NCBI RefSeq assembly: GCF_964194155.1
Contig: NC_135893.1
Location: 22,506,001 to 22,570,000, forward strand
Direction: 5' to 3'
DNA length: 64,000 nucleotides
Source of the DNA: Cetorhinus maximus
Lineage: Eukaryota
Below, one piece after another: positions 25,490-52,450 of the stretch. Numbering within the stretch: the first letter of the stretch is position 1; every line of letters starts with the position of its first letter. The notes beneath the pieces were generated by a model. The model saw only the letters and a program-made list of their open reading frames with translations, was not told the origin of the DNA and did no database searches. The translations under genes were made by a program, and so were the position numbers.

Positions 25490-25810
25490 ATGTCGGTGCG
25501 ACGGCTCCTGGCCCGCGGCTTCGAGCTCAGCCGCTCGGCCTTGCGCCTCGTCGCCCCCGCGGCCAGGGCCAAGGGCAGCGCGGCCTTTGGGCGGCCCGGG
25601 GTCCAGCAGTCGCTGCGGGCCGCCCTACCCGCCCGTTACCGCTATTTCCGCCTGTCCGTGGGCGGCCTGGCGGTTCAGCTCCAGCGCCGAGCGTCCCGGC
25701 AGCTCCCCGGGCCTGGCGGGGCCTTGCTGGCCTTCGGCCTGGGGCTAGGCTTCGTTGAGCAGCAGGTAGAGGAGGTGAGGATGGGGATTGCTGCCTGCGA
25801 GGACATCCAG
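25490..25810 (+). CDS. PINK1: PINK1 exon 1 (mitochondrial targeting sequence, TM segment LAFGLGLG)
   Basis: Arg-rich N-terminus; FRLSVGGLA and LAFGLGLG (PARL site A|F); ACEDIQ then gtaaaa donor. Confidence 0.95.
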
Positions 25811-25872
25811 GTAAAAAAAAACAAAACAAATGTTGGTTCAGGCAACTTCTGAATAGACAGACTAACGTTTCA

Positions 25873-26030
25873 GGGCTGAATTTTCATCTTGCTGCTCTGG
25901 CGTAAAACTGGCGTTGCCCAATCGTTGCCAGATGTTCAATGGGGATGAGTTCAATTTAGGTGAAAATCGTGCGGGAAGCCAATTCCTAACGCTAGTTTTA
26001 GGCCCAAATAGCAAGTTGATAATCCACCCC
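25873..26030. mobile_element. MITE with ~43-bp imperfect terminal inverted repeats (Harbinger-like GGG ends)
   Basis: gggctgaattttcatcttgctgctctggcgtaaaactggcgtt versus reverse complement of the right end ggggtggattatcaacttgctatttgggcctaaaactagcgtt. Confidence 0.75.
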
Positions 26031-26544
26031 TCTAAAGTTTTGATTTGTGCCAACTGGCAATCAGCTGATGTTTGAGCTGATCAAACTGCTAATTTGGAAG
26101 TCAGGAAGCCTTGACTCTGCTAACTTGCCTTTAAACTCTGATTTGATAGCCCAGGCTCATGAATAAGCAATCACTTGAGCAAGATATTGGTAGAAGCCTG
26201 TGCAACCCTATCCTAATGTGTATTGGTTTAATCAAAAAGAGCATATCCTAATGTGTCAATTAGAGGCCTGGCAAATTAATGGTGTTACCCATTCGTTATA
26301 CTTGCACTTGTTACAGACTTTACGTGAGCTTTTGCAATAGAACTTGTGGCGGTTGGAAATCCAAACAATACATTGCCTCCTGTAGAGGATCTGGGAACTG
26401 TGTGAACAGGGCAAGTAACCATACCTTAGTCAGATTGAAGAATCCTTACTGAGATATGCAGAGTCTGAACCAGGAAGTGTAAGTTAGAATATTGAATTCA
26501 TTGACAAGTCATGTATAGAAATTGAAAGATGAGAGTAACATCTT

Positions 26545-26882
26545 ATGAATTCACCAAGGCTCCTTCGACAGCACCTTCCAAACCCATGACCACTGCCATC
26601 TAGAAGGACAAGGGCAGCAGTTAGATGGGAACACCACCATCTGGAAGTTCCCCTCCAAGCCGCTCACTATCCTGACTTGGAAATATATCGCCATTCCTTC
26701 ACAGTCACTGAGTCAAAATCCTGGGACTCCCTTCTTAACAGCACTGTGGGTGTACCTAGACCACATGGACTGCAGCTGTTCAAGAAGGCAAGCTCACCAC
26801 CACCTTCTCGAGGGCAGTTAGGGATGGGCAATAAATGGTGGCCTAGCCGACGATGCCCACATCCCATGAATGAATAAAAAAT
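26545..26882 (+). mobile_element. 3' fragment of the same LINE family
   Basis: Matches 59640-59965; ends cacatcccatgaatgaataaaaa. Confidence 0.88.
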
Positions 26883-27886
26883 TAGGCAGAAAGAAATAGT
26901 AAAACAAATACTCAAAAAAATGTGGCTATAATTAAAATCTGAAGGAATGAGACTTCACACTTATGTAAGTTAATTTTTAGTGCCAGAGGCTGTTTGGTAG
27001 TAATTAAAACTTATCATGCCATTATCACTTAGGCTGGAATGGACAAGCCCTAAGTTTTTCTTGCATATGTTATTTAAGTACCCCAACTTCAAACCCTTCT
27101 GCATATTTCAATGCCGATCTCTCAGCGAGGTACTGTTATAGCACAGCAACCCAGAAGGCAGCTTCCTGATTTTCCCATTTTACTGCGCATGCATGACTAC
27201 TGGACATGCCCTCAATGTTATTTTTACTACAAAATCCAGGCCATTGTTCTCAGGGGAGATGAGGAATTTTCCTGAGTTTAATATATATAATCAGTCATTA
27301 TTTAAGATGGATAATGGTGAATGTAAACCAATACCACAGCAGAGATTAAATTTTGGGGGAGTAGGAACCATTTTCCTACTCCCCAAAATAAAACTTCACT
27401 GAGCAACAAAGTGATTTAATAGCATAAGTTCTATCCCATCAGTGACCATTGATTTGATTTGCTTGATGTGATTCACTCCCTACTCTGGTGAAGCACTAAA
27501 AGCCTTCAGCTTCATCATTATGAAATTTAGGAATTTTTCACAGTTTCAGTCTTGCTAGCTTCCTGATTATCTGGGATGTTGGATCTGACAATGAAACCAT
27601 GGCATCTTAATTTCCTAGAATAGCCTGGAGAACTTGCCCTGTTGACCGGTGGGCAGGAATTTAGTAGATTAGTAAGAGTGCTAATGGCAGGGCTAAATTT
27701 TTTAGCAGTTCTACTCATAAAGCTGAATAAAGATTTGCAGTTCATTCAAAACTAACTGTACTTGATAAAAGTTCTAATATCCATAAATGTGTGCTCATTG
27801 GTAAATTTTGGTTAGTCACTGAATGCTATTTCTCCCCTCACTTGCATCTTCATAAATGTAATTGTTCTATTATTTCCATTTGCCAG

Positions 27887-28588
27887 ACATTGTTTAAAAG
27901 TAAGAAAATTAAATATGAAAACTCCATACCTTTGTGCACCCGTGGATATCGGTTTGAAGATTACAAGATTGGATACCACATTGGAAAGGGGTGTAATGCA
28001 GCTGTGTACAAGGCGTTTATCCCTGGACTGGTCAACCCAAAGGCAAGCAATACGATCACAACAAAGCAGACAGTCCAAGAGGGTCGTGGGGAGGGAAAGA
28101 CTGAACCCAGTGTAAAGGATGTCTTCAGTGAGAATTCCGAAATAAGAAAGAGCACAATGATTACAGAGGAAACATCAAGTTTAAGTTTTACGATTTTGAA
28201 GAGCGAACCATCAACTGACCCTGATCCACTGAGTGTGTCTGAAGGAGACATCAGCTACCTACTGGGTGCTTCCGAAGGAGACATCAGTCACCCACTGGGT
28301 GCTTCCGAAGGAGACATCAGCTACCTACTGGATGCTCCCGAGGGAGATATCAGCTACCCACTGGGTGCTTCTGAAGGAGACATCAGCCACCCACTAGGTG
28401 CTTCCGAGGGAGATATCAGCTACCTACTGGATTCTTCCGAGGGAGATATCAGCTACCCACTGGGTGCTTCTGAAGGAGACGTCAGCTACCCACTGGGTGC
28501 TTCCGAAGGAGACATCGGCTACCCACAGGGTGCTTCCATGGGAGACATCAGCTACCCACTGGCTCTAAAAATGCTTTGGAACATAAAA
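27887..28588 (+). CDS. PINK1: PINK1 exon 2 (Gly-rich loop IGKGCNAAVY, expanded insertion 1, beta3 YPLALKMLWN)
   Basis: ttgccag acceptor and gtaagt donor; 702 nt, open frame, phase 0 at both ends. Confidence 0.93.
28238..28567 (+). repeat. Coding minisatellite, 10 x 33 bp (consensus SEGDISYPLGA)
   Basis: Direct tandem copies of tc(c/t)ga(a/g)ggaga(c/t)atcagctacccactgggtgct with no indels. Confidence 0.97.
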
Positions 28589-28639
28589 GTAAGTTACGTA
28601 CAGTGAAAGTTTGTTGCTTGAGCCTGGATCGAAAATGAC

Positions 28640-28950
28640 CAAACAGGTCTAGGCAGTGGGTGGTGAGGGGGTCATTCAACCTGACTGTCTGCCTCTCTTC
28701 TGTGGTTACGTTCGTATCCAGGTGTCCTTGGAGAAGGAGCAGGTGGTATCTACCGGTGTGCTTGAGGCTTTCTGCCCACCCCAGTGGGTGCCGCAGGGGC
28801 TGGAATACATTGTCTCCCCTCAAAATATTATTTTAATTTAATTAAATAAGTTGCCTCTAAAGATTTGTTTTTTGTTACGGTGCCCCTTTAAGGGGCTGTC
28901 AATCTGTTCATTAGTTTGTTAATTTGTTTATTTAATTTTAAAAGAGTATA
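28640..28950 (+). mobile_element. Tx1/L1-clade LINE ORF2 C-terminal fragment and 3' end
   Basis: PDCLPLFCGYVRIQVSLEKEQVVSTGVLEAF..W.PQGLEYIV, followed by an AT-rich tail. Confidence 0.6.
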
Positions 28951-29895
28951 CTAGGGTATTTGGCATACAGCTTGAATGGGCATATAATGAATATTTTGAA
29001 GGCTGTACTCTGAATTTAACATACTTCACTCTCCACCTATTTGTAAAAAGAAAGTCATAATTTTTTAATGTAATATTTTTCCTGTTTTAGAAAGGGCACA
29101 ATTGCTTGATTAACAATGTAATTAATTCCCTAACAATAACAGTGTAACATCAGGAAAGTAAAATTATGTATGAAAAACATTTGCAGTGGATGAATATACC
29201 AGAATTAAACTTGTCTGGTGTGCAGCCTGTGGAGGATTTAAAATTTGTCACTGCTCTGGTGGTAACACTTTCCAAATCATGGTGAGGTGGATCATCAAGG
29301 AATAATCAACTCTTTGCAGGTAAATAGGTGGCTGTGCAGGTACATTTGAATTGTGTTTCTCTATCATGTTTAAGCCTCTCTGTTTCCTAAGCCATGAAGA
29401 ACTGCCATTTTGATTTCCCCTTGCATCAAAATGTTGCTCAGCATGGGAGGAGCGCTACAGATCAATTTGGGAATTAGCACCTTGGATCTGCCTGAATTGT
29501 GACCCAGCCTAGAAAAGCTAACACTAGCTGTTTTCTGTGCCATCAGCACCAAATTTATGACATGTCTGAGTTTTTAGCTGATGGGTTTGACTGGATCACA
29601 TTACTTAACATGCAAGACTGTTGTTGATGTGCTTCTTTTCTTGGGTAAAATGACATGAACTTGAGAAAATAAGGCTGAATTGAAGGGAACTTTATCGTTA
29701 ACATTTTGTGGATCCCTGAGACAGAGATCATGGTTTTCACTGTCTCCTCCACCTCCCATTTTAAACTTGCTACTTCTGCTGTAAAGTGAAAAATGAAAAT
29801 ACTTGAGGCAAAAAGTATTTTAAAGCAAACGCTCGTTTTTAGCACATTAAGCCTCATGGAATTAATTGCCTTGATGCTTGAACTTTTCATTGCAG

Positions 29896-29993
29896 GCGGG
29901 GTCCTCCACTGATGCAATCCTGTCAGCAATGGGCAAGGAGCTGGTTCCAACCATCCCCAACGCTTTAACCAGAGAGTTTGACAGAACCAAAGG
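29896..29993 (+). CDS. PINK1: PINK1 exon 3 (AGSSTDAILSAMGKELVP...)
   Basis: ttgcag acceptor and gttagt donor; AGSS includes the Ser228-equivalent autophosphorylation site. Confidence 0.95.
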
Positions 29994-30329
29994 GTTAGTT
30001 ACACACACGCAGCACCTATATTAGCAACCCTTGCCTCATTGGTATGAATGTGATAGGATAAGTGATTGCAGATATAGTACAGTTGGTTAAATACATTTGC
30101 TTGCAGGTGGATTTTTGTTTTGCTTAATATTCTTGTCTATGTAGTTATCATGTATTGTATCCCTACTCAAAGGGCATACAGTTATTAGACCTGTCCAGAT
30201 CAAGCTAATGCAAATGCGGTCAATGGGAGAACTATAAAAATCAGTAATAGGATACAAAAAAAGCAATCAAAACGGCAAAAGGGAGTATGAAAAAAAGAAA
30301 ACTTGTAAGGGACCTTATAGCTAACAACA

Positions 30330-31725
30330 TGAGTTTTAATAAATATACTGAGACAGCACGGTAAACAGGAATTAAACACATTGAATACAGATGGAGGGGA
30401 GATTATAATGGATAACAAGGAAATACCTGTTAAATTAGTACTTTGTATTGTTTTACAGTGGAGGAGGAGGATACATTACACATGGTACAAGGGAGCATAA
30501 AAATAAGTAAAGGGGAGGAACCCATTGGGTTTAATACAAAATAATGGCAATGGAGAAAGTAATGGTTCTGAAGATAAACAGGCGTCCAGAATCTGGTTTC
30601 TACTCCAGGGTGTTAACAGAAATAGGTGAGAAAACTACAACAGTAGTGGGGAAGTTACTGATTACAACATCAGAGACAGGAGTGACTAAGCAATTGGACA
30701 AGTATCAGCTAATGAAAGAGAGTCATAAAATCATAGAATAGTTCAGCAAAGGAGGAGGCGATTCAGACCATCGAGCCAGCTCTTTCGAAGAACAATTCAG
30801 AAAGGTTCATTCCCCGTTTAGCTGCCCGTGTACACACACCACTAAAGCTAGCGCAGGGGTACAAAAAGTAACCAACAAGGCGAATGATATGTGGGCCTTT
30901 ATCTCAAGGTGCTTAAATTCAAAAGTGAGGAATTGATGCTTAAATTGTACAGAGCCTTGATCATACCCAATATGATGCACTGTGTTCAGTTTTGGGCCAC
31001 CAGACCTCAGGAATGATATATTGACTTTGGAAGGGGTACAACGCAGATTGACCAGAATGATACCAGGGCTTAACAGATTACAGTACGAGGACAAGTTACA
31101 TAAACTTAGTTTGGATTCTCTTGAATTTAGAATCCTGAGGTATGATCTAATTGAGCCCTTTAAAATGATAATGGAATAGATACAGAGAAATCATTTTCTC
31201 TGGTGGTGGAACCAGAAAAAGGGGCATAATCTTAAAATTGGAGCTAGGAAAGGTTGGACAGACTGGGCTTGTTTCCACTGGAGTTTAGCAGAGTGAGGGG
31301 TGATTTGTTTGAAGTATACAAGATCCTGAACTGCCTTGACAAGTTGGAGGTGGAAAGGATGTTTCCTCTGGTGGGTGAGTCCAGGGCTAGGGGGCACTGT
31401 TATAAAATTAGGGGTCTCTCATTTAGGACCAAGATGAGAATATTTTTCTCAGAGCTATGCGACTTTGGAACTCTCTGCCTCAGAAGGTGGTGGAGGCGGG
31501 GTCATTGAACATTTTTAAAGCAGAGGTAGATAGAGTCTTGTTAGGCAAGGGAATCAAAGGTTATCGGGGGTAGATGGGAGCGTGGAATTCGAAAACACAA
31601 GCAGATCAGCCGTGATCTTATTGAATGGAAGAGCAGGCTCGAGGGGCTGAATGGCCTACTCCTGTTCAGTGATGAAACTGGCTCATGAGGCTGAAATACC
31701 TACACCTGTTCCTGTGTTTCCTCTG
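30330..31725 (+). mobile_element. CR1 (HER1-like) LINE fragments, two nested copies; other 3' fragments at ~590-800, 14560-14830, 16510-16880, 36500-36730(-), 39250-39595, 53040-53450
   Basis: LEGVQRRLTRMIPGL..YEDKL and DRLGLFPLEFSRVRGDLFEVYKIL; tail gggctgaatggcctactcctgttc. Confidence 0.85.
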
Positions 31726-32006
31726 ACATGAAAGAGTGGCTTTTGATGACTTCCTCTTACCTCACAGTTATAGCCAAGATAAAATTCTGCACCTGTGGCA
31801 TTGAATCTGCCCCTTAATATTGTGGGATAGCTTACTGCTGTGCCAGCTTACAGCACTGCAGCTCCACCAACATATTGAAGTATAACGGCAATTTCAATTA
31901 ACATTGAACATTATCTTATGTGCTACAGCCAGGGACAACAAGACACAGATTATGTGAATTTTCCTCCTGAATTATTCTTATAGCTTGTCCCTATAACTTT
32001 GATCAG

Positions 32007-32189
32007 ACCCTACAGTCATAACAGAAAGAAGATGAAACCACATCCAAACATCATCCAGATTGTCCGAGCTTTCGTAGACAATGTCCCTCTCTTGCCTGGA
32101 GCTTGGATAGATTACCCTGATGTACTGCCAACCAGATTGAATCCTTGTGGGTTGGGACACAACCGCACCCTCTTTCTAGTGATGAAAAG
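32007..32189 (+). CDS. PINK1: PINK1 exon 4 ([12 protein letters not shown]...[25 protein letters not shown]; insertion 3)
   Basis: 183 nt; gtaagc donor; first of three in-frame acceptors assumed. Confidence 0.93.
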
Positions 32190-32774
32190 GTAAGCAGTTT
32201 AGACCCTGCCAGGTACTATGCGTTCGAGGACCGCAAGCTGAAGAATTAGTCCTGGTCCATCATGTGTTGTGCTTGAGTTTGGACGGGAAGGAAACCTGAA
32301 AGTGGCCATGGTGAAACACGATGTAGATCTCTGAATGGGGTGGAAGAGATTGACTAAATCCTAGATCTTGAACATCTGTTCTATGTATCCAGAGTTAGCC
32401 TACCTCACAATTCATTGATCCCAGATTTATGTTGGTTAAGCAGTATAGCTATTGGCAGGAGTACCAGATTTTTCCATTTAGGATCAGTGTACAGTTACTG
32501 GAAGAGATTCATAACTGTTTTTAATGCCTGTGAGCATTCCCTTTGTACTTTTCGGTAAAACTGGTACAACATGGATAGCTTGTGAACCCCTGACTGGGAA
32601 ATAATCTATATAACATGTTGCAATGTTGGTTGCAGTATTAAACCAAACCTGGTCTGAGGATTCAGGTTATTTAAACGTGTGTGTGTGGGGGTGTGAGAGA
32701 GAGAGAGAGGCTTAGAGGTGTTCTCTCTCAGCCGTGCAACAGTCCATCACGTGCTGCGCACTTACCCAAGGGCA

Positions 32775-33111
32775 TGCCAAGGCAAAGACCTGCTCCCCCA
32801 GAGCTGGTCTCCAGTTCCCTGTTGGCCGCATCCACTGGCTGCTGTGCAAGGGTCACTATGCCGAGCGTGTCGGGGCCGGAGCCAGAGCCGGAGCCTCCAT
32901 TTACCCGGTTGCTGTCCTTGAGTACCTCACCACTGAGATCCTTCAGCTGGCCGGCAACACGGCCCTGCCACCAGCAGCTCGCCATCTGCAATGATGAGGA
33001 GCTCAGCAAGCTGCTAGGAGGGTTCACCATAGCCCAGGATGGAGTCCTGCCCAACAAACAGGCTATGCTACTGCCCAAGAAAACCAGGCACCCCAGCAAG
33101 GTTTATGCCTG
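32775..33111 (+). pseudogene. Histone H2A pseudogene in PINK1 intron 4
   Basis: [45 protein letters not shown], then a deletion/frameshift into [33 protein letters not shown]; duplicated AGA; no canonical N-terminus; no histone stem-loop seen. Confidence 0.93.
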
Positions 33112-35146
33112 AAGGGGTGAGATGAGAAAAAGATTCTGATGGTTAAATGAGGTTTCCTGCAACTTTAGCCCATGAGCAAAGAACTGATAGACTCCCCCAC
33201 GGCAGGAAATGAATGGAGAAGAGCCAAGCCTGACACAATTAATGAGGTGGAATTAACAGCTGAAATTCTTCATGTCGGTTCCTAGAGGCCAAAGCTATCA
33301 TTGGTCCTGATTAATGCGCACCAGCTGATTCCCTGAAACTAAACCGCAAGCCAGTGCCCTCCCGCTCCACACCGTTAGTTGGATTGATCAAATCTCCGGT
33401 TTCTCCCAATCCTTCTCTTTCTCTCCCCGGCTCCATTACCCTGTACAGCAATGAAAACAGTGCTCATTCTCTGCTTCCCTCCCCGACCCTCCTGCTCGCT
33501 GCTTCCCTCTCTGAGCTCTCGCTCACAGTGAGATGGGAGAGGAATGGTGAGTGGGAAAGTCACGGAGGGAAGCAGTGAGTTGAAATAGGCGGCAGGTCAG
33601 GAGTGGTGGCAAGCTGGAGGCAGGGAGCAGCGAACAAGGGCTAAATTGAAAGAGGTACTGAGTTATTTAGAGTTAGAGGATTTTTGGGCCAGTTAATGCC
33701 ACTGACTTAGCCATTCTGCTGCAGCTTGTTTTGTAGAATTATTAAAGAAAGGTTGATCCCAAAGACATTTGACACATTAAAAACACAAGGACATTTCTAG
33801 GGAGTGTGTGAAAAGTTTTGGACTCCTAGCCCTGATCTGCAAATAATAATGCAAAGTTTCTTGTAGCTCTTTCTATTTTGAGCTTGTCAAATTGAAACAA
33901 ATGAGCCATTGCTACCAATTCAACATTTCTTTTGTCACTAAAGTACAAGCTATAATATAAAAGCTAACAAAGCCTCTCCCAAGTATAGTTGTGAGGTGGT
34001 TGTGACATTGAACTTAAAACCTAGAGGTTTTGCCATCGTGGTAAATTTAAGATTGAATTCACTAAATCTGGTAATTTGTGGATTAGCATGTTATTGTATC
34101 AGTGGCTGAGGGTGTGTTCTTCTTCCATACGTATGGTAACTTTTCAAAAATATATATTATAAATAGGTTTTTATTGTTTCTACTGGTGGCATACATCTGC
34201 ACCTCACCTTGATAAAGGTGCACATAACAAAATTAATTCCACACGGATGGAAAAAAAATAGAACGTTATTTGCAACCCTCATACCTTTCATCTGATCCAG
34301 GCAGACCTGCTTTGAATGCACTTCCATCTCTGTGGGAGTTGCCAGAGTGTCTAGAGAGAGAGGGAGGGAGAAAGTGAGGTTATGTTAGGGATTTCTGCAG
34401 TCTCCCCATTAGACCTACAAAATAAACTGTTGGAACTGTAGATTTTTCCTCCTTCCTGTTGGGAAACACTCATCCTCCACTCAGGAAAAGCCAAGGTGAC
34501 ATGTTTGAAATCAGAAACTCACGATGGTGAAGTATGTGCAACATTGAATAGAATGACTTTTGAGCAAGTCATGCTCTAGACTGCAATCAAAACAAAAAGT
34601 CGATTAAACACTGATGGCTCAGCTATTTGTGACAGATTAGGAAGGTCAAACATTCAGTCACTGGTCTGTGCTGCACTGAGTAGTACAACTGGTGTAGCGC
34701 AGGTCCCTCATGGCTCTGTGTTAGAGATCTGATTCTTGATTGTTATCCACTGACCCTTGCTGGAACTCTGAGTGGAGATTGAGTCAGGACAGGATAGTCT
34801 TTGGCTATGTTGTCCCTACAAGTCAGATGCTTGCTGTCTGGCTTCGTTTGGATGAGGTGCCAGAGGTTACTTTGCTACAGGAGGGGTTGTATTGCAACAT
34901 GAGTCAACACCTTTAGCGGGGAAACAGAGAAAATTAATGTGAAAGGAGTAGTGGTGAAAAAAGCACCATTTCAGACAATGGGCATTTTGAACCATGTGAG
35001 GCTGCATGCTGCTATTGGAAGTGTTGCTGCTTTTCAAAAAAAATGGCATGTTGAATAATTTGAAAAACTTTGTAGTCAGCTATTTGATAACACCCTTTTT
35101 GGCAGGACAACATGCAGAGTTGACATTTGTATGTTTTCTGCCCTAG

Positions 35147-35310
35147 CTATCCATGCACCCTGCGCCAGTACCTTCAGGTCTGTATCCCCAACACAAACTG
35201 TGCGACTCTGATGATTCTTCAGTTACTGGAGGGAGTGGATCATCTAGTTCAGCATGGCATTGCACACAGAGACCTGAAGTCTGATAACATCCTGGTGGAG
35301 TTTGATTCAG
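35147..35310 (+). CDS. PINK1: PINK1 exon 5 (catalytic loop [10 protein letters not shown])
   Basis: ccctag acceptor and gtgatt donor; 164 nt. Confidence 0.97.
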
Positions 35311-35821
35311 GTGATTGTACGAATTGAGTGGGAGCAGTCATTAACACTTAGATTTTTTAAAGTTTTACTGACTCTGCATGCACAAAAAATAGTTAGACAT
35401 TCTGGTCATAGCATATCAGTATGATGTAAGAGAAGATTTGTCCACAATTCCAGTCTTGAGCCACAGAATTCCTGTACGGGATAAAGCCCTAGCTCAGTAT
35501 TTACACAATGTATAGTGGTACTCACTTTTGAAGATCATTTTTTTTTGCCTTTTTCTAAAAATATGCAATGAGGTAAATGGAATGGTTTGCAGTCAGTATT
35601 TCACGTAGGACACTGACAGCTTCTCTGCTTCTGTGGCACATCATAAGATTATTTTTCTGCTATATTTTGTAGATTGTTTTTTTTCTTTTTAACCATTTTA
35701 ATTCTATGAAAAATAATTAATTTTCAATTCATAGCACCCTTGCCTCAGTTGTAGAGTTGCTGATTCAAGACCCACTAATAAAGGGTATAAATTTAAGTCT
35801 TTTTTTCTGTGCTTTGTTTAG

Positions 35822-35949
35822 TTGGCTGTCCACGTTTGGTGATCACTGATTTTGGTTGCTGTCTGGCAGAGGAAAGTCTCGGGTTGAGGCTTCCTTTTAC
35901 TAGCATGGATGTCGACCGGGGAGGAAATGGCTGCCTAATGGCTCCTGAG
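35822..35949 (+). CDS. PINK1: PINK1 exon 6 (DFGCCLA...[11 protein letters not shown])
   Basis: tttag acceptor; DFG and APE motifs; inferred GC donor (GAG|gcaggt). Confidence 0.92.
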
Positions 35950-36126
35950 GCAGGTGCACTGGGAAAAATAAGTAAAATCAGGCAGAGCTGCTACTTGTGC
36001 ACAGTTAATGTTTGTAGTGCAACATATTTGTCTGTAACTGCAGTCAGAGTGACTGAACAAGTCAACATTCTTTGACTTATTGGTGCACTATGTCTTAAAT
36101 CTAATCCTTACAACTGTGCTTTCTAG

Positions 36127-36363
36127 ATTTCTGCAGCAGTCCCTGGACCCAGTGTAACTATTGATTACAGCAAATCAGATGCCTGGTCGGTGGGTACCTT
36201 AGCCTATGAGATCCTGGGTCTTCACAATCCATTTTATGGATGTGGAATGGATTACTTGGAGAGCAGGAACTATCAAGAGGATAAGCTGCCACCTCTGCCA
36301 GGCTCTGTTCACAGAGACGTGAGGCTGGTGGTGAAACTTTTGTTGTGCAGAGATCCTAAGAGG
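36127..36363 (+). CDS. PINK1: PINK1 exon 7 (ISAAVPGP...DYSKSDAWSVGTLAYEILGLHNPFY...DPKR)
   Basis: ttctag acceptor and gtgagt donor; 237 nt. Confidence 0.96.
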
Positions 36364-37880
36364 GTGAGTACAGCAGCAATGGTTGAAACTGTTCATTGAC
36401 TGGAAATGACACGATCGTTTGATAAGTGCCCTTGGAAGATCACAACTTTGCTTTTTATGAACGTACAAAATTGACAGCCAGGTGGTTCATCGAACCTGTC
36501 CAAGAATGCAAGAGCAAGAGTAGACCATACGGCTCATCGAGCTTGCTCTGCCATTCAGAACGATCATGGCTGATCTTGGGCTTTAACTTGATTTTCCCTC
36601 TTGGTCCCCATATTCCTCGATTCCCTGAGACCCCAAAATTTTGTATATCCCAGCCTTAAATGTATTCAATGATGGAACATCCACAACCCTCTGGTGTAGA
36701 GAATTCCAAAGATTCACAACCCTTTAAGCCCCACACAACAATGGCCAGAGCATTATTACCACATATCTCCTCTCCATAACCACCCCCCCATCACCCTCCC
36801 AACTGCTCCCACTGAGCTTCGCAACCATGTACTCTCCTGGGAGGAAAAAACCCCAGGGCCAATAAGGTTAAAAAAAAAGACTTGGAAAAATTCTTCGTCA
36901 AACCCCTGAGACAATCGAAATCAGTCTGGGAGATCACATAGACCAAGTATTTCTATAAAGACACTAGCTTATATGTCCCAGCTAAGAACAGGTTTGACTC
37001 CCTATCGAAGCACCCACCACACCAGCTGGCAATGTATTCCACCTCCTCTTCTAAAAACGCTGACTTGCTGGGGTACAGGTTCAAAGACATGGTACATGGC
37101 TGCCTATTATGTGTGAGCTCTAGGCAGTGAATGCCAACAAGCTTATTCAAGTAAACAGTGCCATAGCCAACCCCAAACTCAACTCTGTCCTTGCCTAATG
37201 TCCCTACTGTAGGGGTCACTGGACAGGGAAACCATGTGGCTGATCTTGAGGCCAGTTGTAGTGCCCCATCTCTACCCTGACTGGCTTTGCTGTATTCTCA
37301 GGGAATCAAGGGATTATGGGGAGTGAATGGGAAAGTGGAGTTTAAAGCCCAAGGTCAGCCATGATGGTATTCAGTGATGGAGCGGGCCTGATGACCCATA
37401 CGGTCTACACCTCCTATTTGCTGTGTTCTTGTACTCCCCCAATATTTCAACACATGCAGATATGCAGGTGCCATCCACCCGGCAGTGACCCACTCAATTG
37501 TCCATGGAAGTGAAGATGAGAATCTTGAAATATAAACAGAAAATGCTGGAAGTATTCAGCAGGTCAGGCAGCATCTGTGGAGAGGAACTTAGCTGGCATT
37601 TCAGGTTGATGAATTTTAATTTTTGACTCTTTGCAGCACAGGGTACCAATGGAACTTGTAAGGAAAGATGAAGGGATTATCTCCTTCCACCCTTTATTCA
37701 AAGGCCTCCTAAAGACTTTTCCCTCGGCTGTTTTTCTCAGTTTTTGGCACTGGGGCACTGAGGTTGAACATACTGTCCTCCCTCCCAACCTCAGCTCACA
37801 TAAGCTAAAAGTGTGGAATTTCATTATCTGTCGATCTGTATAACCTAGGAATGACCAATTTTTTTTCTTCCTTCTCGCAG

Positions 37881-38132
37881 CGCCTGTCAGCAAGATCTGC
37901 TGCAGACATGCTGCACCTACACCTGTGGGGGGCAGAGCTCCTCGCCTCCGCACAGATCAGTGTGGAGAAAGTTTTCGATTGGCTTCGGTGCCAGACTCTG
38001 TTCACCTTCCTGCAGGTCGCAATGAATCATGAATTATCCGTGGAGACCGAACTAAAGAGAAGCTTCTTGGCAAATATCAGCTTCGAAGAATTGAGCCTGG
38101 GACTGGATCTACTGCAACACGGGAAGGGCTGA
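37881..38132 (+). CDS. PINK1: PINK1 exon 8 (RLSARSAADMLHLHLWG...C-terminal extension, TGA)
   Basis: Long pyrimidine tract plus cag acceptor; LHLxLWG motif; stop at 38130-38132. Confidence 0.95.
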   Translation, partial: RLSARSAADMLHLHLWGAELLASAQISVEKVFDWLRCQTLFTFLQVAMNHELSVETELKRSFLANISFEELSLGLDLLQHGKG

Positions 38133-40615: not shown

Positions 40616-41220
40616 AGATTTTTTTTTAAAATTACTCCCAAATTAGGATTACTTGGGGGTCAGAGTCAACCTTAGCTCGAGAACTTGGCATCTTGCAAAA
40701 TCGGCTGATCAGATTTCCGAAAGTCTAGCTGTGAGGGCCTTCGGGCCAGGTTGTGATTTGGTAAAGGGATATGATCTAACAACCATGGGATAATCACTCT
40801 TCACTTTGCAATCACAGAGAAAATATATTTTGAATAATGCTTTATTCAAGTCGATGTCTTTAGGAGACGAAGGAGCAAAAAGTTGTTTTTGGGTGAACTT
40901 GTGTAACTTGATGGGTATGTCACCCGGCTCTGCTTTCCTGGGCCCCTGGACAGCATGGAGACGAAGACAAGGAAGGAGACCATTCAGTCAGAGCTGGTCT
41001 GCAAATAGCTTAAGAGTGACATTGGCAGATGGATCAGGGTGGGACACTCGTCAGGACTCTCAGATTGAAAATGGGAGTTTAATCTGATGGTTTCAAAGAG
41101 AGAAAATTTCTTTAAATACATTCTGAGACCTGAGTAGGGTTGCTGTAGCGACAAAACTGAAGAGTATGAGTGGTTCAATGTTACTAGTTTAGCTGCAGCT
41201 GTCTCACTGCCAAGGTTCTG

Positions 41221-41315
41221 GGGTGGGCGGAGTTTCAGCTGGTAAACGCACTTTGACCAAAAGTGGTGTCCATTCTTATAAAACTCCTGAGATATTTCCA
41301 ACTTCCTCAGTAAGA
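41221..41315 (+). promoter_or_regulatory. AGMAT core promoter: GC box, HNF4-like site, TATAAAA, Inr-like TCAGT
   Basis: gggcgg ~41225; gcactttgacc ~41248-41258; TATAAAA 41277-41283; TCAGT 41307-41311. Confidence 0.5.
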
Positions 41316-41572
41316 ATGGAGCGGATTCTCCTGCGCTGTGCCCCCTCTCCACTGAAGGCAGGGTACCCGCGGGACTGGCTGCTGCAGACCCTGTGCCGCT
41401 GGAGCTCCTCCTCGTCTCGGTTCAACATGCCACCCAGCGCTGCCGAGGTAGCCCGGCCAGCCGGAATTTGCTCCATGATGCGCCTCCCGGTGCAGGATTC
41501 CTCGAAGGGCTTGGACGCTGCTTTTGTTGGAGTACCTCTGGACATTGGCACCTCGAACCGGCCAGGTACTAG
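41316..41572 (+). CDS. AGMAT: AGMAT (agmatinase/guanidino acid hydrolase) exon 1 with mitochondrial presequence
   Basis: MERILLRC...GICSMMRLP...GLDAAFVGVPLDIGTSNRPGTR; phase-2 gtggga donor. Confidence 0.93.
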
Positions 41573-42628
41573 GTGGGAAACACAAGCAAATCTACTGTTC
41601 TGTCACTAAAACCTGTTAATTAAGCTTCTGAGCATGCAGTTTGAGATACTCCCAATTGAGTTGCGATTTATTAATAACTCATACAAGCTTGTTCCGAATT
41701 TAGCATCAATTTAGGTACATTATTATTTCATATAGACGGTTGGCTGGGAGGCATGATGACAGCCTTCCAAGGATGAGGAGGAACAGCCTATCCAAACTTA
41801 AACCAAGAATGGGCTGAATTTTTCTTTCAAAATAACATTGAGTCTAATAGCGCTTACTGTTGTAAATAGGACAGCAACATAGAGTGAAGAGCATGTGTGA
41901 GTTTAAATGCCAATATCCAAAAGTTGTCGTTGTCGTAGGGTGGTAAATGCAGTTCAGAGGTCTGAAGAAGTCTCCATAGTCATACGTAGTTTAACTGTAA
42001 GTCTTTATTGACTCTTAGAACTATTTATAAATATGCAGTAAAGGGTACAAGAGAGGAGCTGCCTCCATGCTTGCTGGTACACACTGCTCTGTCCAACACT
42101 AGTCTGACCCTGGCTCTGGGTCATGTGCTCTCTTTCATCACTATGTAGGCAGTACTGTACTCAGTCCCACATTAACCTATATGTGCCAGACCCTTATAAT
42201 ACAGCACAGCTCCACTGTCAACATTGCAAATATGGCATTGTTTCTGCCTCACCTTTAACCTGCATTGAACATCCTGAATTTTCTGTATTTGCGTGGTGGA
42301 TATGAACTAAAGACCTTAGAAAGGTAAGTCTTGTCATTCCATGCAAAAAATTAAATAACCTAAAAATACAAGGGTAAGGCTAACTAATAGCAAATGTCTT
42401 TAAATAATCTGCGAATCATTCTTTCCAGCAACTAGCCGGGGCAGTTATCCCTGACCTGGAAGTCTTTCATGTTAGCAATAGTTGCCCAGCAATAACATCT
42501 CTCAGCTTAAAGAGAAAATGGCAAAAGAAAGTTCCAAGTTTTACATTGGCTGAAGGATTGATTCTCTTTTGCAATGTCATTATGTTCAGAATAAGGGGGA
42601 ACTCTTTCAATTCTGTTTTTACATTTAG

Positions 42629-42831
42629 ATTTGGACCCCGACATATCCGAGCAGAGTCAGCCATGGTTAGAGCCTACAATGGCAGCACCAGAGCAGCCCC
42701 TTTTGAATCTCTGATGGTGGCTGACATTGGTGACGTCAACGTGAATCTTTTTGACCTGAAGGAGAGCTGCAAGATGATCAGGAACTCTTTTAAGAAGATT
42801 GTGTCCACAGGCTGTATACCACTGACAATAG
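42629..42831 (+). CDS. AGMAT: AGMAT exon 2 (FGPRHIRAES...VADIGDVNVN...GCIPLTI)
   Basis: tttag acceptor and gtatgg donor; 203 nt. Confidence 0.96.
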
Positions 42832-42979
42832 GTATGGATTTGCATACTGACATTGGTCAGCAGCTCTTGGGGGGGAATAGAAGAGGGAATGGAATAAAAT
42901 TCAGAAAAAAGACAAAAAGAGAATTTTAAATCTTTTTACACTGCATGGCAAAATCACTAATTATGTCTGTTGTGCCTAG

Positions 42980-43028
42980 GTGGTGATCACACAATAACAT
43001 ATCCCATATTGCAGACAATGGCAGACAA
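42980..43028 (+). CDS. AGMAT: AGMAT exon 3 (GGDHTITYPILQTMAD)
   Basis: cctag acceptor and gtaagt donor; 49 nt; GGDH metal-ligand motif. Confidence 0.96.
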
Positions 43029-43483
43029 GTAAGTCTCGTTGCATGTTATTGTTATTGAAATGCATCAAACATTTTGCTAATAAATGCTGAATTCTACATA
43101 AGGAGCTATACTCTTTGCCAAACTGTCATGTACATGCCCTGGAAATGCTTGACTGGGCAGGGTAGCTGTACCATTGCTTGAAACTGTGCCATTTGTTTGC
43201 TTGAAAAAGCTGGGCTGCACTGCAGGGAAACATGTTCTACGTTTGGAATCATCCCTGATTTGCACTAAGTGTGGTAGCGGGTGGGAAAAACGACGTTTTA
43301 CCCACCGGCCAAAACAGCGGCTTCTCAGGTCGTATCGTCCCAACCCTGCCTCATTAATTATGCATTCGATGGCAGGCAGGCTCTCATTCGCCTCACCACT
43401 TCCTCACGCCGGGTGCCGTATTTAAAGTGCAGCTTCGTGCACACCTCTCAGTGCTTCCAGCCCAGGACCGCTGCACGGAAGAC

Positions 43484-45260
43484 ATGGCCTGAAAGGCAAA
43501 AAGACTGCAGCCCTCGTGTCCCTCAAGTGCCTTTTGGATGCCATAGAGGCCCACTGTGATGTTCTCTACCCACGCTCTGGCCACAGGATGGGCAGCAATG
43601 TCACCAAACTGGCCTGGGAGGCGGTGGCAGCGGTGGTCAGCGCCAAAACCCTGTAAAAGAGGACATCCAACCAGTGTCAAAAAAATGAATGATCTCCGTT
43701 CCGCCAGGGTAAGTCACTCTTCTCATCACTCTCAACTCACACACTGACAAACCCATCACACATCCACCAGGACCTCATTCACTGTCAGTTCAAGGGACAT
43801 CACCATTCACTCTCTCACACACACCTTCATTGTCCTCATCCTGCCCATGGGACCACTCACCACCCACACATGCCAGGCATACTTATCATCTGATAAAAAC
43901 AAAAAGCTAAAAGCTACTGCGGATGCTGGAAATCCAAAACAAAAACAGAATTACCTGGAAAAACTCAGCAGGTCTGGCAGCAACTTATCATCTGACCTGG
44001 CAGGTGTCCTGCTTACACTGTCTTCATCTTTATTTATGCAGGACAAGCTGGCACACAACAAGAGGGAGAAGTTCCAGACTGGTGGAGGAATGCCTGAAAT
44101 CCAGGTCCTCACAGACTTTGATAATAGAGCCATCCAGCTGGCCAGCGAGGATCTGGACCGTTCTTGTGCTGACGGTGAGGTCGGCGGTGCTGTACCAAGT
44201 GAGGATCCAGCAGTGCCGCATCCATCAGCCAACCATGCTGTGAGTGATGTGTCCTGTTTCACAGGCCACTGCCAAGCACTAATTATCTCTCCTTGCTTTC
44301 GCAGGCACATCTGGGAAACAGCCGACGGAGTCCACAATCCATGGTTTCCAATCAAGCCCTGAAGAAACCTCTGAAGAGCAATTAAAGGCACCCTCATTGA
44401 AGACCCATCACAGTGCTCACCCAGACCCTCCACCAACGCAGAGACACACACTTCGGTGGGACCTAGCTTTAGAGTAGCCCTGAGATCACAATCTGATGAG
44501 CACATTGCACTGTCTGATCCACAGCAGGCAGCAGCAGGGACTTCCCAGGTGTCTGGCACTCGAAGGACTGCTGGAGGCCAAAGATTTGCTGAGTTCAAGT
44601 CAGCTGACGAGCCTCTGGACTTGGTCATACCTCCGTTGCTAGAGCTGCAGAGGCAAGCTTGGGAACATCAGGAAGGAATGTTCCCTGCATTCCGCAAGGT
44701 ACGATGGAGGAGTCTGTCCGCCTTCAGGCTGAGATGATAGCACTGGCATGCCAATGCACTGAGGTCAACACTGGTAGATTGGCAATGCGCCATGGAGACC
44801 TTGGTCCAGGACATTGCTCCTGCATTGCTGCGCAGGCTTAACTCCATCGCTGATGCCATAGTCAGCCTCTAACAGTGTGTATGTGAGAGGGTGCGGGGAA
44901 ACTTGATCTCACTCCAGCTTCCCCTTCTCCTGAAGGAGTCAGCCAGGGCCCTAGGGCACCCATAGGGAGGAGGATCAGCAGGTGCACACCCCAGGGCCTT
45001 CCACCCAGGTAACTCCAGGAGAGTCCAGCCCATCCAACTCTCCTCTTCCTGTGACCCCAGCAGTTCCAGCTCTATAGGTCAAGGAGGATGCCACTGCCAC
45101 ACAGCAGGATCCCGAAAGCAGGCTGGACCCTCCAGGTCTTGGTCCTCCAGAGGATGCCTGCCAAGGTCATCACAGACAGCAGGCTGCCTCCACCTCCAAT
45201 GTGGATGTCCGAGGGCACCAAGACCTAGTGGCAGGGTTAGGAAGATTAAGAAGGTGTAGT
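43484..45260 (+). pseudogene. Harbinger Myb/SANT-like DNA-binding protein gene, spliced and decayed
   Basis: KKMNDL..AR|gtaagt at 43709; DKLAHNKREKFQTGGG after the acceptor at ~44041; a further acceptor at ~44304. Confidence 0.75.
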
Positions 45261-45959
45261 TGTACAGCCTGGGCATGGGTGTTAATCTCTTGTACATAAT
45301 GTTCACTATTGTAAATAAACTCTCAACAATGTCTCCCTGCCTATGGGTCCTTGTTCTGATGAGCAGTATTCCTGTCACTCAGATACTCAGATGTGAAACC
45401 ATGTGATAAAGGCAAGTGTCTCAGTCCAGGGTCTCTTCCCTGTGCTTTGTGCGGCCTTCAGACCAAAGTGATGGTCTGACTTCAAACTCCCTGGACAAAT
45501 TAGTGATGCCTGCACCTCAATGGTGCTTGTCATTGCTGCCAGAATGCCGTGGGCAGATGCCACAGAGTTCCGTCATTCTCTCTGTGTGCTCTCAGCACCT
45601 TTAAGGTGGGGCTGGGTCCCATTGCATCAGCATTTGTGTCCGGTGACGCTGTGCCCCTGAAGGGCTCAGGTGCTGAAGGCTGACAAAGGATCAAGTGCTT
45701 TTAAAGTTTCATGCCTGCATCTCTATGATATGACCCTGATCACAGAGCGCAAGCGAGCTGCCCTCAGCCACACAGAAGTCAGAGATTCTCAGAGGCTATG
45801 TGAAGATCTATGGAGTGTCCTCACTGCATGTCATCATCATCCTCCTGCAATTGGGCGACTAATAGGGCCTCCATTGGTCTCCATGACAGCAGCATTATCG
45901 CAAAGGGTATGCGCACTGCCATAAGCCAGACTGGAGTCAAATGTTCACAGGTGCAATGT

Positions 45960-47178
45960 GAGGAATAATGGACTCTCTTCACTGCATGTTGTCATCAGCC
46001 TCCACAAATCTAGCAGCTTTGAGCGCCTCCCGAGGGCACCTGCCTCATCTGGCCAATGCGAGGGCCTCACCCCCATCATCGCTGCCTTCGAGGATCTCCT
46101 CACCCTCATCCCCATCCCCATCCTCCTCATCCGAGGAGACCTCAAGCTCCTCCATCTCCTCCTCAGCCAGCTCCTCTCCCCATTGCAGTACCAAGTTGTA
46201 AAGGGCGCAGCAGAGGATGACGATGTGTGACACCCTATGTGGACTATATTGCAGGGCTCCACCACTCCGGTCCAGGCACCGGAACCTAATTTTCAGCATC
46301 CCGATGGTTTGCTCAACCAATGTGCGAGCTGCAGCATGAGCCTCATTATACCTTCGCTCTGCTAGTCTGAGGCCGACATACTGGTGATATCAGCCACATC
46401 CTCTGCTAGTAGCCCTTGTCCCCGAGGAGCCATCCCTGCAGCCTCTGTAGATCCTGGAAGATGTCAGGGATCTGTGACCAACTGAGAATGTAGGCGTCGT
46501 GGACAATCCCTGGAAACAATGCACAGACCTGCAGATCAGCGAATGGAAGCCCTTGCAGGTTGACATATTTGACCGTGTGTTGCAACGGAGATCTGAGTGG
46601 CACATGAGTGCAGTCGATGGCACCCTGCACCTGTGCGAAACCTAAGATCTGGGCAAATCCTGGCTGTCCTGGTCCTGGGTGAAATGTACAAAGTTGTGTG
46701 GCCTTGCGAAGATGGCGCCCGTGACCTCATGGATGCATTTGTGGGTGGAGGCTTATGAGATCCAACAGAGGTCACCTGTAGAGCCCTGAAAGAAGCCAAT
46801 GCCATAAAATTTGAGCGCCGCAATCACTTTCACGGCCATGGGCAGTGGATGCCCTCCATGTCCCCATGACGCCAAATCCTGCAGCAGCTGGCAGATGTGA
46901 CTGACCAGTTCCTTAGGCATGTGCAGTCTTTGACGACAGTGGTTCTTGGTCATTTGCAGGAATGAAAGGTGGCGTCTATAGACCCTGGGTCCAGCTAGGC
47001 GCTGACCAGCGATGGCTCGCTATGGCTCTTCAGCGGCATATGCGGTAGCCCCAGCTGCCCCATCTTCCTGAGGGAACTGCTCCTCCCTCTGCACAGCCAG
47101 GTGCCTCCGTCGCTCTCTTCTCCATCGTCTTTACTCTCTGTACGCCATGAATCATACAGCTTGTTCACCGGGCTCCAT
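45960..47178 (-). pseudogene. Harbinger (HARBI1-like) DDE transposase, frameshifted
   Basis: Fragments KVIAALKFYGIGFFQG, QGAIDCTHV, WLLGDKGY, VEQTIGMLKIRFRCLDRSGG and CCALYN lie in different frames; acidic tail. Confidence 0.9.
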
Positions 47179-48899
47179 GCTCCTGATGAACTCCCCCTGC
47201 AGGATGAAAGAGAGAGATGAATGGGTTAGCTTGGGTGTTCTAAGAACCTCTCTTGGTTAAGTCTGAAAGCCCTTTAACTCATCCCAGAGAGTGCTGGCCA
47301 CCACTTGGATGGCCAGAGATTAGTGCGCTGCATGGCTGCCCAAAACCCCACCCTCAGCCGCCCCACTTCACCTGACTAATTGGCGGCAGCTTTGCCCATT
47401 GGGCTGCATGCTGTGCTCTCAGCTCAGGCACAGGCATTTTCCTAACCCACACTGCAAGGCTGCACTGTTAGCTTGAACCACGGGTGAGGCTGGTCCAAAG
47501 CGGGATGATGACATTGCAAGGGGCTGTGAGCACCTCCAGCTCTGACTGCTCCATGGCCAGCTTTCGCAAGGAGATTGTACAAGGTGCCCAGCTGTTCAAC
47601 TGTTCTACAGTCCACTAAAACGTTCATTAGCTTGTAGTCTGTGCCCAAGGGGTGAAAAGCTCTGGAGCACTTGGTGGCACTTTCATGCCCTTGCGTTTCT
47701 TGAGTGGGGCAGAGAAGCTAGAGGCCGGACTCCATGCATGTCAGTGTGGCTGCGTCTGAACTGTCTCAGCTTCGGAGGAATGGTCACTTTATACAAGATT
47801 TCATGAATGCATGGCCGCTTCCCTCCCCCCGCACCTTGCACGTGCTTGTGCACTACTTTCAACCGCGGGGCAGCCCTTGCCCCCCCCCAACCCTCCAGAT
47901 CACCTCAACCACAGGGCAGCCCTTGTACCCCCCAACATGCCTCAACTTTGAAGTCCAATAGGCAACTCTCGCGAGCGCTGTGCACCATTACTGTGCACAC
48001 ACCTTCGAATTCCCCTCAAACTGCAGCCCGCCAAGTGTACGCCTTATATATGCTGTTGTGAAACACGTCGGTGTGCTCGGACAATCCAATGTGGAGGGAA
48101 GATTCTGACGGGCTGGCCTTATAATATGCAGGTGTATTACAGTGAGGCTCCTGATGTCCGATGGCGGGAAACATGGCCTGCCATTGACGGACTGAATGGA
48201 CGATTGCAAACTGGTTTCACGGCATCGTGAAACCAATTTTTGGCCTTCTTGCCCTATTGTCCGCTCACGCCGCCAAAAACGCCTGACTCCAGCCGGCATG
48301 GAAAATTCCACCCTTCATGTGAGTTAGTGCGAAAAGTCAGTAATGGTAAAAAGACAGCAAATTTGGTTTCAAACAAGGTTAAACATTTTAAAACAGACTT
48401 GCACAGAAAATGGAAAGATGCAGCTGAATGTTCAAAATGATTTTACTCTTCAACTTTCTCCCCTGTGCCTCTCCTGAATGTTGCAACCGTTGACCATCAT
48501 TTTGGCGGCTTTCGGCCTTTCTCTGTTTCATCTGTGGCCATTACTTATTATGAGCAAGGAACGGCTGTTCCTCCATGAGCAGCAGCACAGTTGATTGGAT
48601 CTTGACCAGACCTCTTCCTACATGTGCTTCCAGCAGGAGTGAGTGAATAATGATCAGGATCGAAACAGTGCCTGATATGTGATCATTGCATCACGGCTAC
48701 TGCTTCCCAGCAGTTAACTCTGCACAGAGCATAGATTGAATTTGTGACCTTCATGGAGCATTGGACTTAGGTACTCGCCAGATAAAAGTCACTGAACTGT
48801 GTTGTAAGAACTGGCACAGAAGGTGAAGTTAAAGAAAATTCCTGGAAGGATAAAATTAAGAAGCAGTTCAAAAGAATAGATTAGATGACATAGTTTTTA

Positions 48900-51800: not shown

Positions 51801-52093
51801 TGGCTTGCTAGGCCATTTCAGAGGTCACCTAAGAGTCAACACCATTGTTGTAGATCTGGAGTCACATGTGAGGATGGCAGATTTCCTTCGCTAAAGGGCA
51901 TTAGTGAACCAGATGTGTTTTTACGACAATCGACAATGGTTTCATGGTCATGATTAGACTTTTAATTCCAGATTTTTATTGAAATCAAATTTCACCATCT
52001 GCTTTGGTAGAATTCAAACGTGGGTCCCCAGAGCACTATCCTGGGTCTCTGGAATACTAGTGCAGTGACAATACCACTATGCCACCACCTCCC
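48900..52093 (-). mobile_element. Near full-length decayed CR1/L2-group LINE (APE + RT) with a tRNA-like 5' head
   Basis: NIWGL..QSDIVILME (endonuclease), ALDIKAAFDRMW, GVPQGSVLGP, FADD, KLNWTSHI; family 3' tail at ~48910; A/B box-like motifs at 52010-52084. Confidence 0.9.
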
Positions 52094-52254
52094 ATTTTGT
52101 AAGGACTAAAGAAACAACTGGGTATGTGATAGTGGAGGAGGAGTTGGAAAACTTGTAGAAACATTGAAATCTCATTGTTTGCTCTTATGAAGTCTGGCCT
52201 GTTGATTGCAAATTCTGTCCCATCATGACTTCCTGTTGCTCTGTTTTTTATCAG

Positions 52255-52450
52255 ATATGGCCCAATAGGCCTGGTTCACATCGATGCACATACTGACACA
52301 GGTGATATTGTCCTCGGGGAGAAGATCTGTCATGGAACGCCATTCAGGCGCTGTGTGGAAGAAGGGCTACTTGACTGTAAACGCGTGGTACAGACCGGCC
52401 TCCGTGGTTCAACTTATGAACCAGATGGTTACCTTTGGGGCAGAGAACAG
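52255..52450 (+). CDS. AGMAT: AGMAT exon 4 (YGPIGLVHIDAHTDT...HGTPFRRC...GLRGS)
   Basis: tatcag acceptor and gtaagt donor; 196 nt; DAHxD motif. Confidence 0.97.

Follow-up and report, generated by a model that had tools for sequence, protein, structure and literature searches.

PINK1 is a Parkinson's-disease gene, and the kinase it encodes carries three insertions in its kinase domain. The first of these, insertion 1, lies between strands β2 and β3 and has, to our knowledge, no known role. Human PINK1 deprived of insertion 1 (residues 180-209) still phosphorylates ubiquitin and Parkin in cells according to PMC5679756, although that assay, made by overexpression with CCCP, concerns a 30-aa loop and not the 180-500-aa acidic loop of sharks. 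The same source describes insertion 1 as a remnant, of ~11 aa, in Tribolium. Low-resolution insect models reported in a preprint place insertion 1 near a dimer interface (10.64898/2026.08.19.745768), and the PINK1 N-lobe is described as often unfolded on the TOM complex and on Hsp90-Cdc37 (PMC12669725; 10.1101/2025.10.17.682828).

Two further classes of known element resemble parts of the locus described here. Coding minisatellites, or protein VNTRs, include the mucin-type and DRD4 repeats. LC3/GABARAP-binding LIR motifs of the F type include the BECN1 motif SANS-FTLI, for which phosphomimics are reported to raise binding (PMC6613885).

A literature search in which subscription journals were thinly covered returned no paper on shark PINK1 insertion 1 or on a repeat within it, and the words 'shark', 'chondrichthy' and 'cartilag' do not occur in the main text of 10.64898/2026.09.05.749644, which treats a 48-species alignment. 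We describe here a shark-wide coding minisatellite in PINK1 that is present in automatic annotation whilst undescribed in print, and that is most likely tolerated.

Results

The basking shark PINK1 gene

The window (the whole 64,000-nucleotide stretch of basking shark DNA analyzed) carries a complete PINK1 gene of eight exons on its + strand, at 25490-38132. The joined exons give a single 2,085-nt frame, the product of which is identical to RefSeq XP_078414193.1 (P0015; basking-shark PINK1 isoform X1, 694 aa). All of the introns are GT-AG except intron 6, which is GC-AG. The features of the gene are as follows.

25490..25810, + strand: PINK1 exon 1 (ATG, targeting sequence, transmembrane helix), joined by splicing to exon 2 in runs X4 and X14 (GT..AG, 2,076 nt skipped)
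27887..28588, + strand: PINK1 exon 2, 702 nt / 234 aa (G-loop, insertion 1, β3 with catalytic Lys), bounded by AG and GTAAGT
28016..28237, + strand: non-repeat part of insertion 1, 74 aa, an older extension common to sharks and rays
28175..28198, + strand: conserved block SSLSFTIL, aa 204-211, a candidate short linear motif with LIR-like core F-x-x-L
28238..28567, + strand: coding minisatellite of 10 x 33 bp, majority unit SEGDISYPLGA, found by TRF and tiled without differences by X1 and X4 contigs
28568..28570, + strand: catalytic lysine K335 (equivalent of human K219), directly 3' of the array; strand at 332-338 in the structural model
29896..29993, + strand: PINK1 exon 3 (AGSS autophosphorylation motif, αC Glu356); joint 28588>29896 GT..AG in run X14
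32007..32189, + strand: PINK1 exon 4 (includes the insertion 3 region)
35147..35310, + strand: PINK1 exon 5 (HRD)
35822..35949, + strand: PINK1 exon 6 (DFG, APE), followed by the GC-AG intron
36127..36363, + strand: PINK1 exon 7
37881..38132, + strand: PINK1 exon 8 (C-terminal extension, stop)

Translation, RefSeq name and fold matches agree on the PINK1 architecture of an N-terminal targeting sequence, a transmembrane helix, a kinase domain bearing three insertions, and also a C-terminal extension. Human PINK1 is the best match by both sequence and fold and aligns to the window protein on either side of the loop, in agreement with the naming of gene and loop as PINK1 and insertion 1 in the initial annotation. 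That annotation also held the catalytic Lys, HRD, DFG, APE and AGSS to be intact, and all are indeed found in the eight-exon translation, with K335 (in YPLALK), AGSS 342, E356, HRD 475, DFG 499 and APE 530 in place.

Several other features of the locus were noted. Intron 6 (window 35950-36126) opens with GCAGGT, and its GC-AG ends are required by the RefSeq protein. RefSeq isoforms P0008 and P0016 (Heterodontus and white shark) are 61 aa shorter, which is the length of exon 4 (183 nt); P0008 is without exon 4 sequence, and insertion 3 would thereby be removed. Intron 1 contains, at 26540-26900, a very high-copy repeat element matched by tens of thousands of contigs in every run compared. Intron 4 has, at 32675-33112 (+), a fragment similar to the C-terminus of histone H2A (Pfam PF16211, E 1.4e-13), which probably stems from a retrocopy that has decayed. 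Directly downstream of PINK1, at 41193-52657 (+), lie exons of an arginase-family gene that we take from its motifs to be agmatinase-like; the downstream neighbor of human PINK1 is DDOST. Open reading frame fragments on the - strand at 50230-51121, 55560-56302 and 58876-59550 resemble, judging by eye, LINE reverse-transcriptase and GIY-YIG/Penelope-type pieces.

A coding minisatellite within insertion 1

The gap between AVYKA and YPLALK measures 179 residues (nt 28016-28552). The initial annotation had the size of this loop right, but its start at 28020 was 4 nt away from the true start at 28016. Ten in-frame 33-bp units, differing pairwise by 1-10 nt, fill 28238-28567 with neither stop nor frameshift, and translate exactly as first listed: SEGDISYLLGA, SEGDISHPLGA, SEGDISYLLDA, PEGDISYPLGA, SEGDISHPLGA, SEGDISYLLDS, SEGDISYPLGA, SEGDVSYPLGA, SEGDIGYPQGA and SMGDISYPLAL. 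Tandem Repeats Finder reports a period of 33, 10.2 copies, 84% matches, 0% indels and a score of 471. The array is thus a coding minisatellite in the usual sense of head-to-tail, in-frame units of 10-100 bp within a translated exon. Enlargement of the loop had been ascribed to the 10 x 11-aa repeat; the units do account for 105 of the 179 residues, but the other 74 are non-repeat. A 19-nt piece of the unit, with up to 3 mismatches allowed, occurs only at these 10 sites within the window, and exon 2 has a single match in the 3.99-Gb genome. Unit 10 ends in YPLAL, the start of strand β3, and the catalytic lysine comes next; the unit thus copies the 33 bp leading into β3.

The array in sequencing runs

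The run evidence consists of contigs from 6 of 24 runs (X1, X4, X5, X6, X11 and X14), the RNA status of which was judged from spliced joints alone; X6 and X11 were compared to exon 2 alone, and the array coverage of X5 is partial and of low depth. In the DNA-like run X1, which is possibly the assembly's own sample and hence not independent, three contigs cover the array with 0 differences at a flat depth of 4.0-4.9, the long flanking contigs being at 5.5-6.0. Run X4 bears the same species label but is another sample. One of its contigs skips intron 1 (GT..AG, 2,076 nt) and enters unit 1, and further X4 contigs tile the whole array, again with 0 differences. Only 14 31-mers are repeated inside exon 2, all of them between units 4 and 7, so the path through the array is nearly unique.

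In run X14, from a relative whose substitutions agree with the white-shark protein at the sites compared, both flanking GT..AG joints are present, the exon 2-3 joint with only 25 letters on its short side. This joint was seen only in X14, and was not among the joints from the basking shark's own runs. In X6 and X11, which come from another relative, exon 1 sequence overhangs exon 2 at its start. The X4 contig and the X14 joints bear out the retention of the 702-nt exon in RNA. An 867-nt X4 contig over the 3' half of intron 2 (29042-29908, depth 6.7) may be unspliced RNA or DNA carry-over.

Two other readings, that the assembly created the array or that splicing cuts it out of exon 2 before the transcript is mature, are very improbable. 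An artefact could be suspected from the RefSeq isoform X2 models of basking shark and white shark, both of which are without one unit, and from the ~25 identical protein units in a row in white shark, where an assembly could miscount. In the basking shark, however, contigs from X1 and X4 reproduce all ten units in their sequence, without evidence of collapse, and independent assemblies behind 14 shark proteins have the array as well. As for splicing, a phase-compatible donor after 28111 and an acceptor at 28528 would together leave a 40-aa loop, but the contigs of X4, X6, X11 and X14 run unbroken through this donor, and the internal intron (exitron) was rejected as a candidate. None of these four runs, the four compared there, has a joint inside exon 2, with the proviso that contigs drop rare variants and minor isoforms may escape such a check. 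Over the array, the summed depth of X14 climbs to 178,868, whereas the flanks have 1,003-1,543, an excess that many transcribed copies would produce but that is not to be read as a copy number. Artefact and splicing-out, which the initial annotation had named as ways for its reading to fail, are thus largely refuted for the basking shark.

The 33 nt absent from the RefSeq X2 models were ruled out as a GT-AG or GC-AG intron by a hand check of the units; not being a canonical intron, the gap would be an allele or a read-alignment effect. It is the only hint of the within-species length polymorphism that had been thought probable. The two basking shark samples (X1 and X4) fit one 10-unit path, and the unit count is 17 in each of two S. 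torazame assemblies. The T>C variant of X4 at 28260 (Leu>Pro in unit 1; depth 6/13, with the middle contigs at 13.6-17), absent from X1, is probably a heterozygous Leu/Pro change rather than a length allele. This substitution makes unit 1 match the majority unit.

Distribution of the array

The same 11-aa array is found in the same place in all 14 of the 14 shark species-level proteins compared. The number of units is 2 in Heterodontus, 4 (degenerate) in each of the carpet sharks Rhincodon, Stegostoma, Hemiscyllium and two Chiloscyllium, 6 in Heptranchias and in P0006, 10 in Mustelus and the basking shark, 15 in Pristiophorus, 17 in Scyliorhinus torazame, 18 in S. canicula and 39 in the white shark. 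P0006 is a whole 649-aa PINK1 with its six units encoded on one 2,096-nt Logan contig. In the white shark, the 39 units produce a 498-aa loop and a 1,013-aa PINK1. The loop had been called lineage-specific, and this stands for sharks as a whole but not for the species, the 10 units of which are mid-range between 2 and 39. The initial annotation had also considered that the repeat might already be common and described in chondrichthyan PINK1; common it proves to be, in 14 of 14 sharks, but the literature covered by our search gave no published description.

Across elasmobranchs the loop ranges from 80 to 498 aa. Ray and skate loops (80-102 aa) end in one clear unit and one or more degenerate ones, so the first duplication probably predates the shark-ray split. 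The bony-vertebrate loop, expected to be about 40 aa, does have a median of 40 (31-49 aa; 98 of 101 rows measurable, drawn from the best 120 of 1,097 hits). The sole chimaera model (Callorhinchus, P0120) is without the β3 region, and a representative search contained no further cartilaginous fish among its 12 hits; one protein from that search, P0272, was set aside as an unrelated repeat protein. In Mobula (P0013), insertion 1 ends in a separate ~8-9-aa repeat of GDAGYP type, apparently an independent small expansion at the same site.

When the loop is left out of the tree, the species with long arrays belong to separate clades. The end branches for the core are short in the 10-unit and 39-unit species alike (0.018 and 0.017), and the kinase core is therefore not in decay. 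In each of the 11 species compared, units resemble one another more closely than they resemble those of other species, and lineage-specific forms occur, such as SERESSYPLCA in the sawshark and SEGDISHPLAA in the white shark. As read from the aligned units, the pattern is one of repeated expansion and homogenisation; copy number that differs between species (2-39) with homogenisation within the array is also what defines a protein VNTR.

Composition and constraint of the units

The loop was predicted to be acidic, and the ten basking-shark units do have a net charge of -21; across sharks the charge is -1 to -2.9 per unit. There are only 9 lysines in 135 units. Repeated S-x-x-D sites had also been claimed, which is true in general, an S/T-x-x-D/E pattern starting 113 of 135 units from 12 sharks, but not in the three carpet sharks counted, where this pattern starts only 1 of 12 units and, by this count, is lost. 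Of the positions in the majority unit, E2, P8 and L9 are invariant across all 12 sharks, whilst G3, D4 and S6 are kept in 11 of 12. Such conservation across long-split lineages appears to exceed what free drift needs, and homogenisation with a constrained last unit could explain it. No frameshift or stop is present in any array examined. Among units 1-9 there are 8 replacement variants over 24.7 sites and 5 silent ones over 8.3 sites, a ratio of ~0.5 that is not separable from neutral (hand binomial p ~0.2). Pfam hits to Mucin-like (39-unit array) and TT_ORF2a were discarded as compositional.

These features could be taken to mean that the array tunes PINK1 levels or import arrest, either through a turnover signal of PEST type or through its charge acting as a brake at the TOM channel, with copy number setting each species' mitophagy threshold. 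The initial annotation had likewise suggested that the loop could alter import arrest, TOM docking, dimerisation or turnover, a putative effect to be set beside the activity that human PINK1 keeps without insertion 1 (PMC5679756). The negative charge per unit, the scarcity of lysines and the S/T-x-x-D/E starts are all in keeping with such tuning, and segments with a PEST score >+5 (own script) occur in 6 of the 8 proteins scored. Moreover, since the N-lobe is frequently in an unfolded state when on TOM or Hsp90-Cdc37 (PMC12669725), a large insert in it could matter. We nevertheless consider tuning unlikely. Copy number is fourfold apart in two lamniforms and runs from 6 to 18 in carcharhiniforms with the core rate unchanged, the PEST-positive segments (basking shark, white shark, S. 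canicula, Pristiophorus) come from the array start or earlier and not from the bulk of the units, and the carpet sharks are without the S-x-x-D pattern.

A conserved block beside the array

The 74 non-repeat residues, common to sharks and rays, contain a block, E-x-S-S-L-S-F-x-x-L, that is absent from the initial annotation. Between sharks and rays, column identity is 0.73 in the block and 0.31 elsewhere in the loop (p=0.003 by column shuffling). The block pattern occurs in 19 of 21 elasmobranch proteins. We take the block, upstream of the array, for a separate, older element under real constraint. It is best regarded as a constrained short motif with candidate partners only, of which a LIR is the leading guess; the block may bind a partner beside the repeat.

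At aa 201-211 (EETSSLS-FTIL) the block has a LIR core, [W/F/Y]-x-x-[L/I/V], with acidic or phosphorylatable residues upstream. On this basis, the enlarged loop could be a regulatory module in which SSLSFxxL is a phospho-regulated docking motif, most likely an LC3/GABARAP-binding LIR, and the acidic S-x-x-D/E array adds adjacent negative charge; activated shark and ray PINK1 would then recruit autophagy membrane directly. The block is the best-conserved part of the loop and lies in a region predicted to be disordered, its serines at -1 and -4 resemble those of BECN1 SANS-FTLI (PMC6613885), and the genome has both ATG8-family and Parkin RING0 exons. A core preceded by an acidic residue, Ser or Thr is present in 19 of 21 elasmobranch loops, which are related and not independent, against 0.21 per shuffled loop by chance; with a stricter pattern, it is present in 1 of 100 bony-vertebrate rows.

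That same chance rate means that such cores are common, arising in about one-fifth of shuffled loops. In addition, basic residues come after the core, 11 of 15 skate rows carry Trp at +3 and Narcine no longer has the Phe, the latter two being departures from a canonical LIR. The block comes ~55 aa past β2 and before the array, the length of which would therefore not determine how far the block can reach; it also predates the expansions and so does not explain them. A predicted complex of aa 192-228 with GABARAP (P0174, from a frog, with no difference from the shark protein over the 40 aa compared) scored 0.11 against a mark of 0.34, in a run without folded controls or an alignment and with a tool unproven on peptides, and carries no weight for or against the motif. 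We think a LIR-bearing regulatory module quite improbable.

Predicted structure

The best fold match of the shark protein is 9EIH, human PINK1 on the TOM complex, and insect PINK1 is also matched. In an AlphaFold2 model made from a 76-row alignment that is thin over the loop (mean pLDDT 58.7), β1-β2 (134-151) and β3 (332-338) are formed, whilst aa 156-330 have pLDDT <50 and no secondary structure. The model of the 2-unit Heterodontus protein gives the same picture, with 153-234 unstructured. The disorder that the initial annotation proposed for the loop is thus predicted and only that, because low pLDDT also follows from a thin alignment. The conserved block lies within pLDDT <50 and without secondary structure in both models, a prediction subject to the same thin alignment. 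The idea that SSLSFxxL forms an edge strand was dropped, the strand being absent from the basking shark and Heterodontus models.

Discussion

We favor, at a probability of about 0.6, an explanation in which the array originated by duplication at the β3 end of exon 2, turns over by slippage and unequal exchange, and is tolerated in a flexible, dispensable loop. It likely arose as a single duplication of 33 bp ending in strand β3, probably before the shark-ray split, and would have grown and shrunk by slippage and unequal exchange. With a loop that is predicted to be disordered and that human PINK1 can do without, the array is likely tolerated and not required. The kinase, the long form of which is known here from genes, contigs and models, with its activity predicted, would fold and work normally: β3, with the catalytic lysine next to it, would come from the last unit, and the remaining units would extend from the N-lobe as a flexible chain, acidic and poor in lysine. 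The main targets of selection would be the reading frame and an inert composition, and not copy number.

A bolder proposal joins the block and the array: sharks and rays would have made insertion 1 into a regulatory arm, with a phospho-switchable LC3/GABARAP motif by which the kinase acts as its own mitophagy receptor, and with the shark array of 2-39 acidic, multi-phosphosite units as a species-specific dial on stability or signal strength. This we regard as a long shot.

Sharks offer a natural series of PINK1 loops from ~90 to ~500 residues, in which the white-shark protein is nearly doubled whilst the core is conserved. If neutral, the array shows how much insertion the N-lobe tolerates, both when on the TOM complex and when in the activating dimer, and points to a place for a tag or sensor. 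If the block binds a partner, this would give insertion 1 a first function and mean that one vertebrate lineage wires mitophagy differently. If alleles differ in length, the array is a candidate coding marker for shark population work.

With human and insect PINK1 the shark protein shares gene structure, motifs and the insert between β2 and β3, but the loop is 179 aa here and 80-498 aa in elasmobranchs, as against 31-49 aa in bony vertebrates (98 rows) and ~11 aa in Tribolium, and the array together with the conserved block is seen only on the elasmobranch side of the comparison with bony-vertebrate PINK1 rows. Automatic annotation already includes the long exon for many sharks (RefSeq XP_078414193.1 and relatives), where the models are annotated as PINK1 only and the repeat is undescribed. 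With F-type LIRs, as represented in PMC6613885 by BECN1 SANS-FTLI and PIK3C3 FELV, SSLS-FTIL shares the core and the spacing of the upstream serines; unlike them, the skate blocks often have Trp at +3, Narcine is without the Phe, and binding by the shark block is putative. The array also resembles coding minisatellites and protein VNTRs such as the PRDM9 zinc-finger array, which likewise combine an in-frame unit with lineage-wise homogenisation and large copy differences between species, and the 39-unit shark array scores as Mucin-like in Pfam by its composition. Allelic length variation is typical of VNTRs and is hinted at here only by the RefSeq X2 models; samples X1 and X4 fit one 10-unit path. 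In contrast to the PRDM9 type, the shark units are not folded domains but sit in the ATP-binding lobe of a kinase, and the last of them is part of the catalytic strand.
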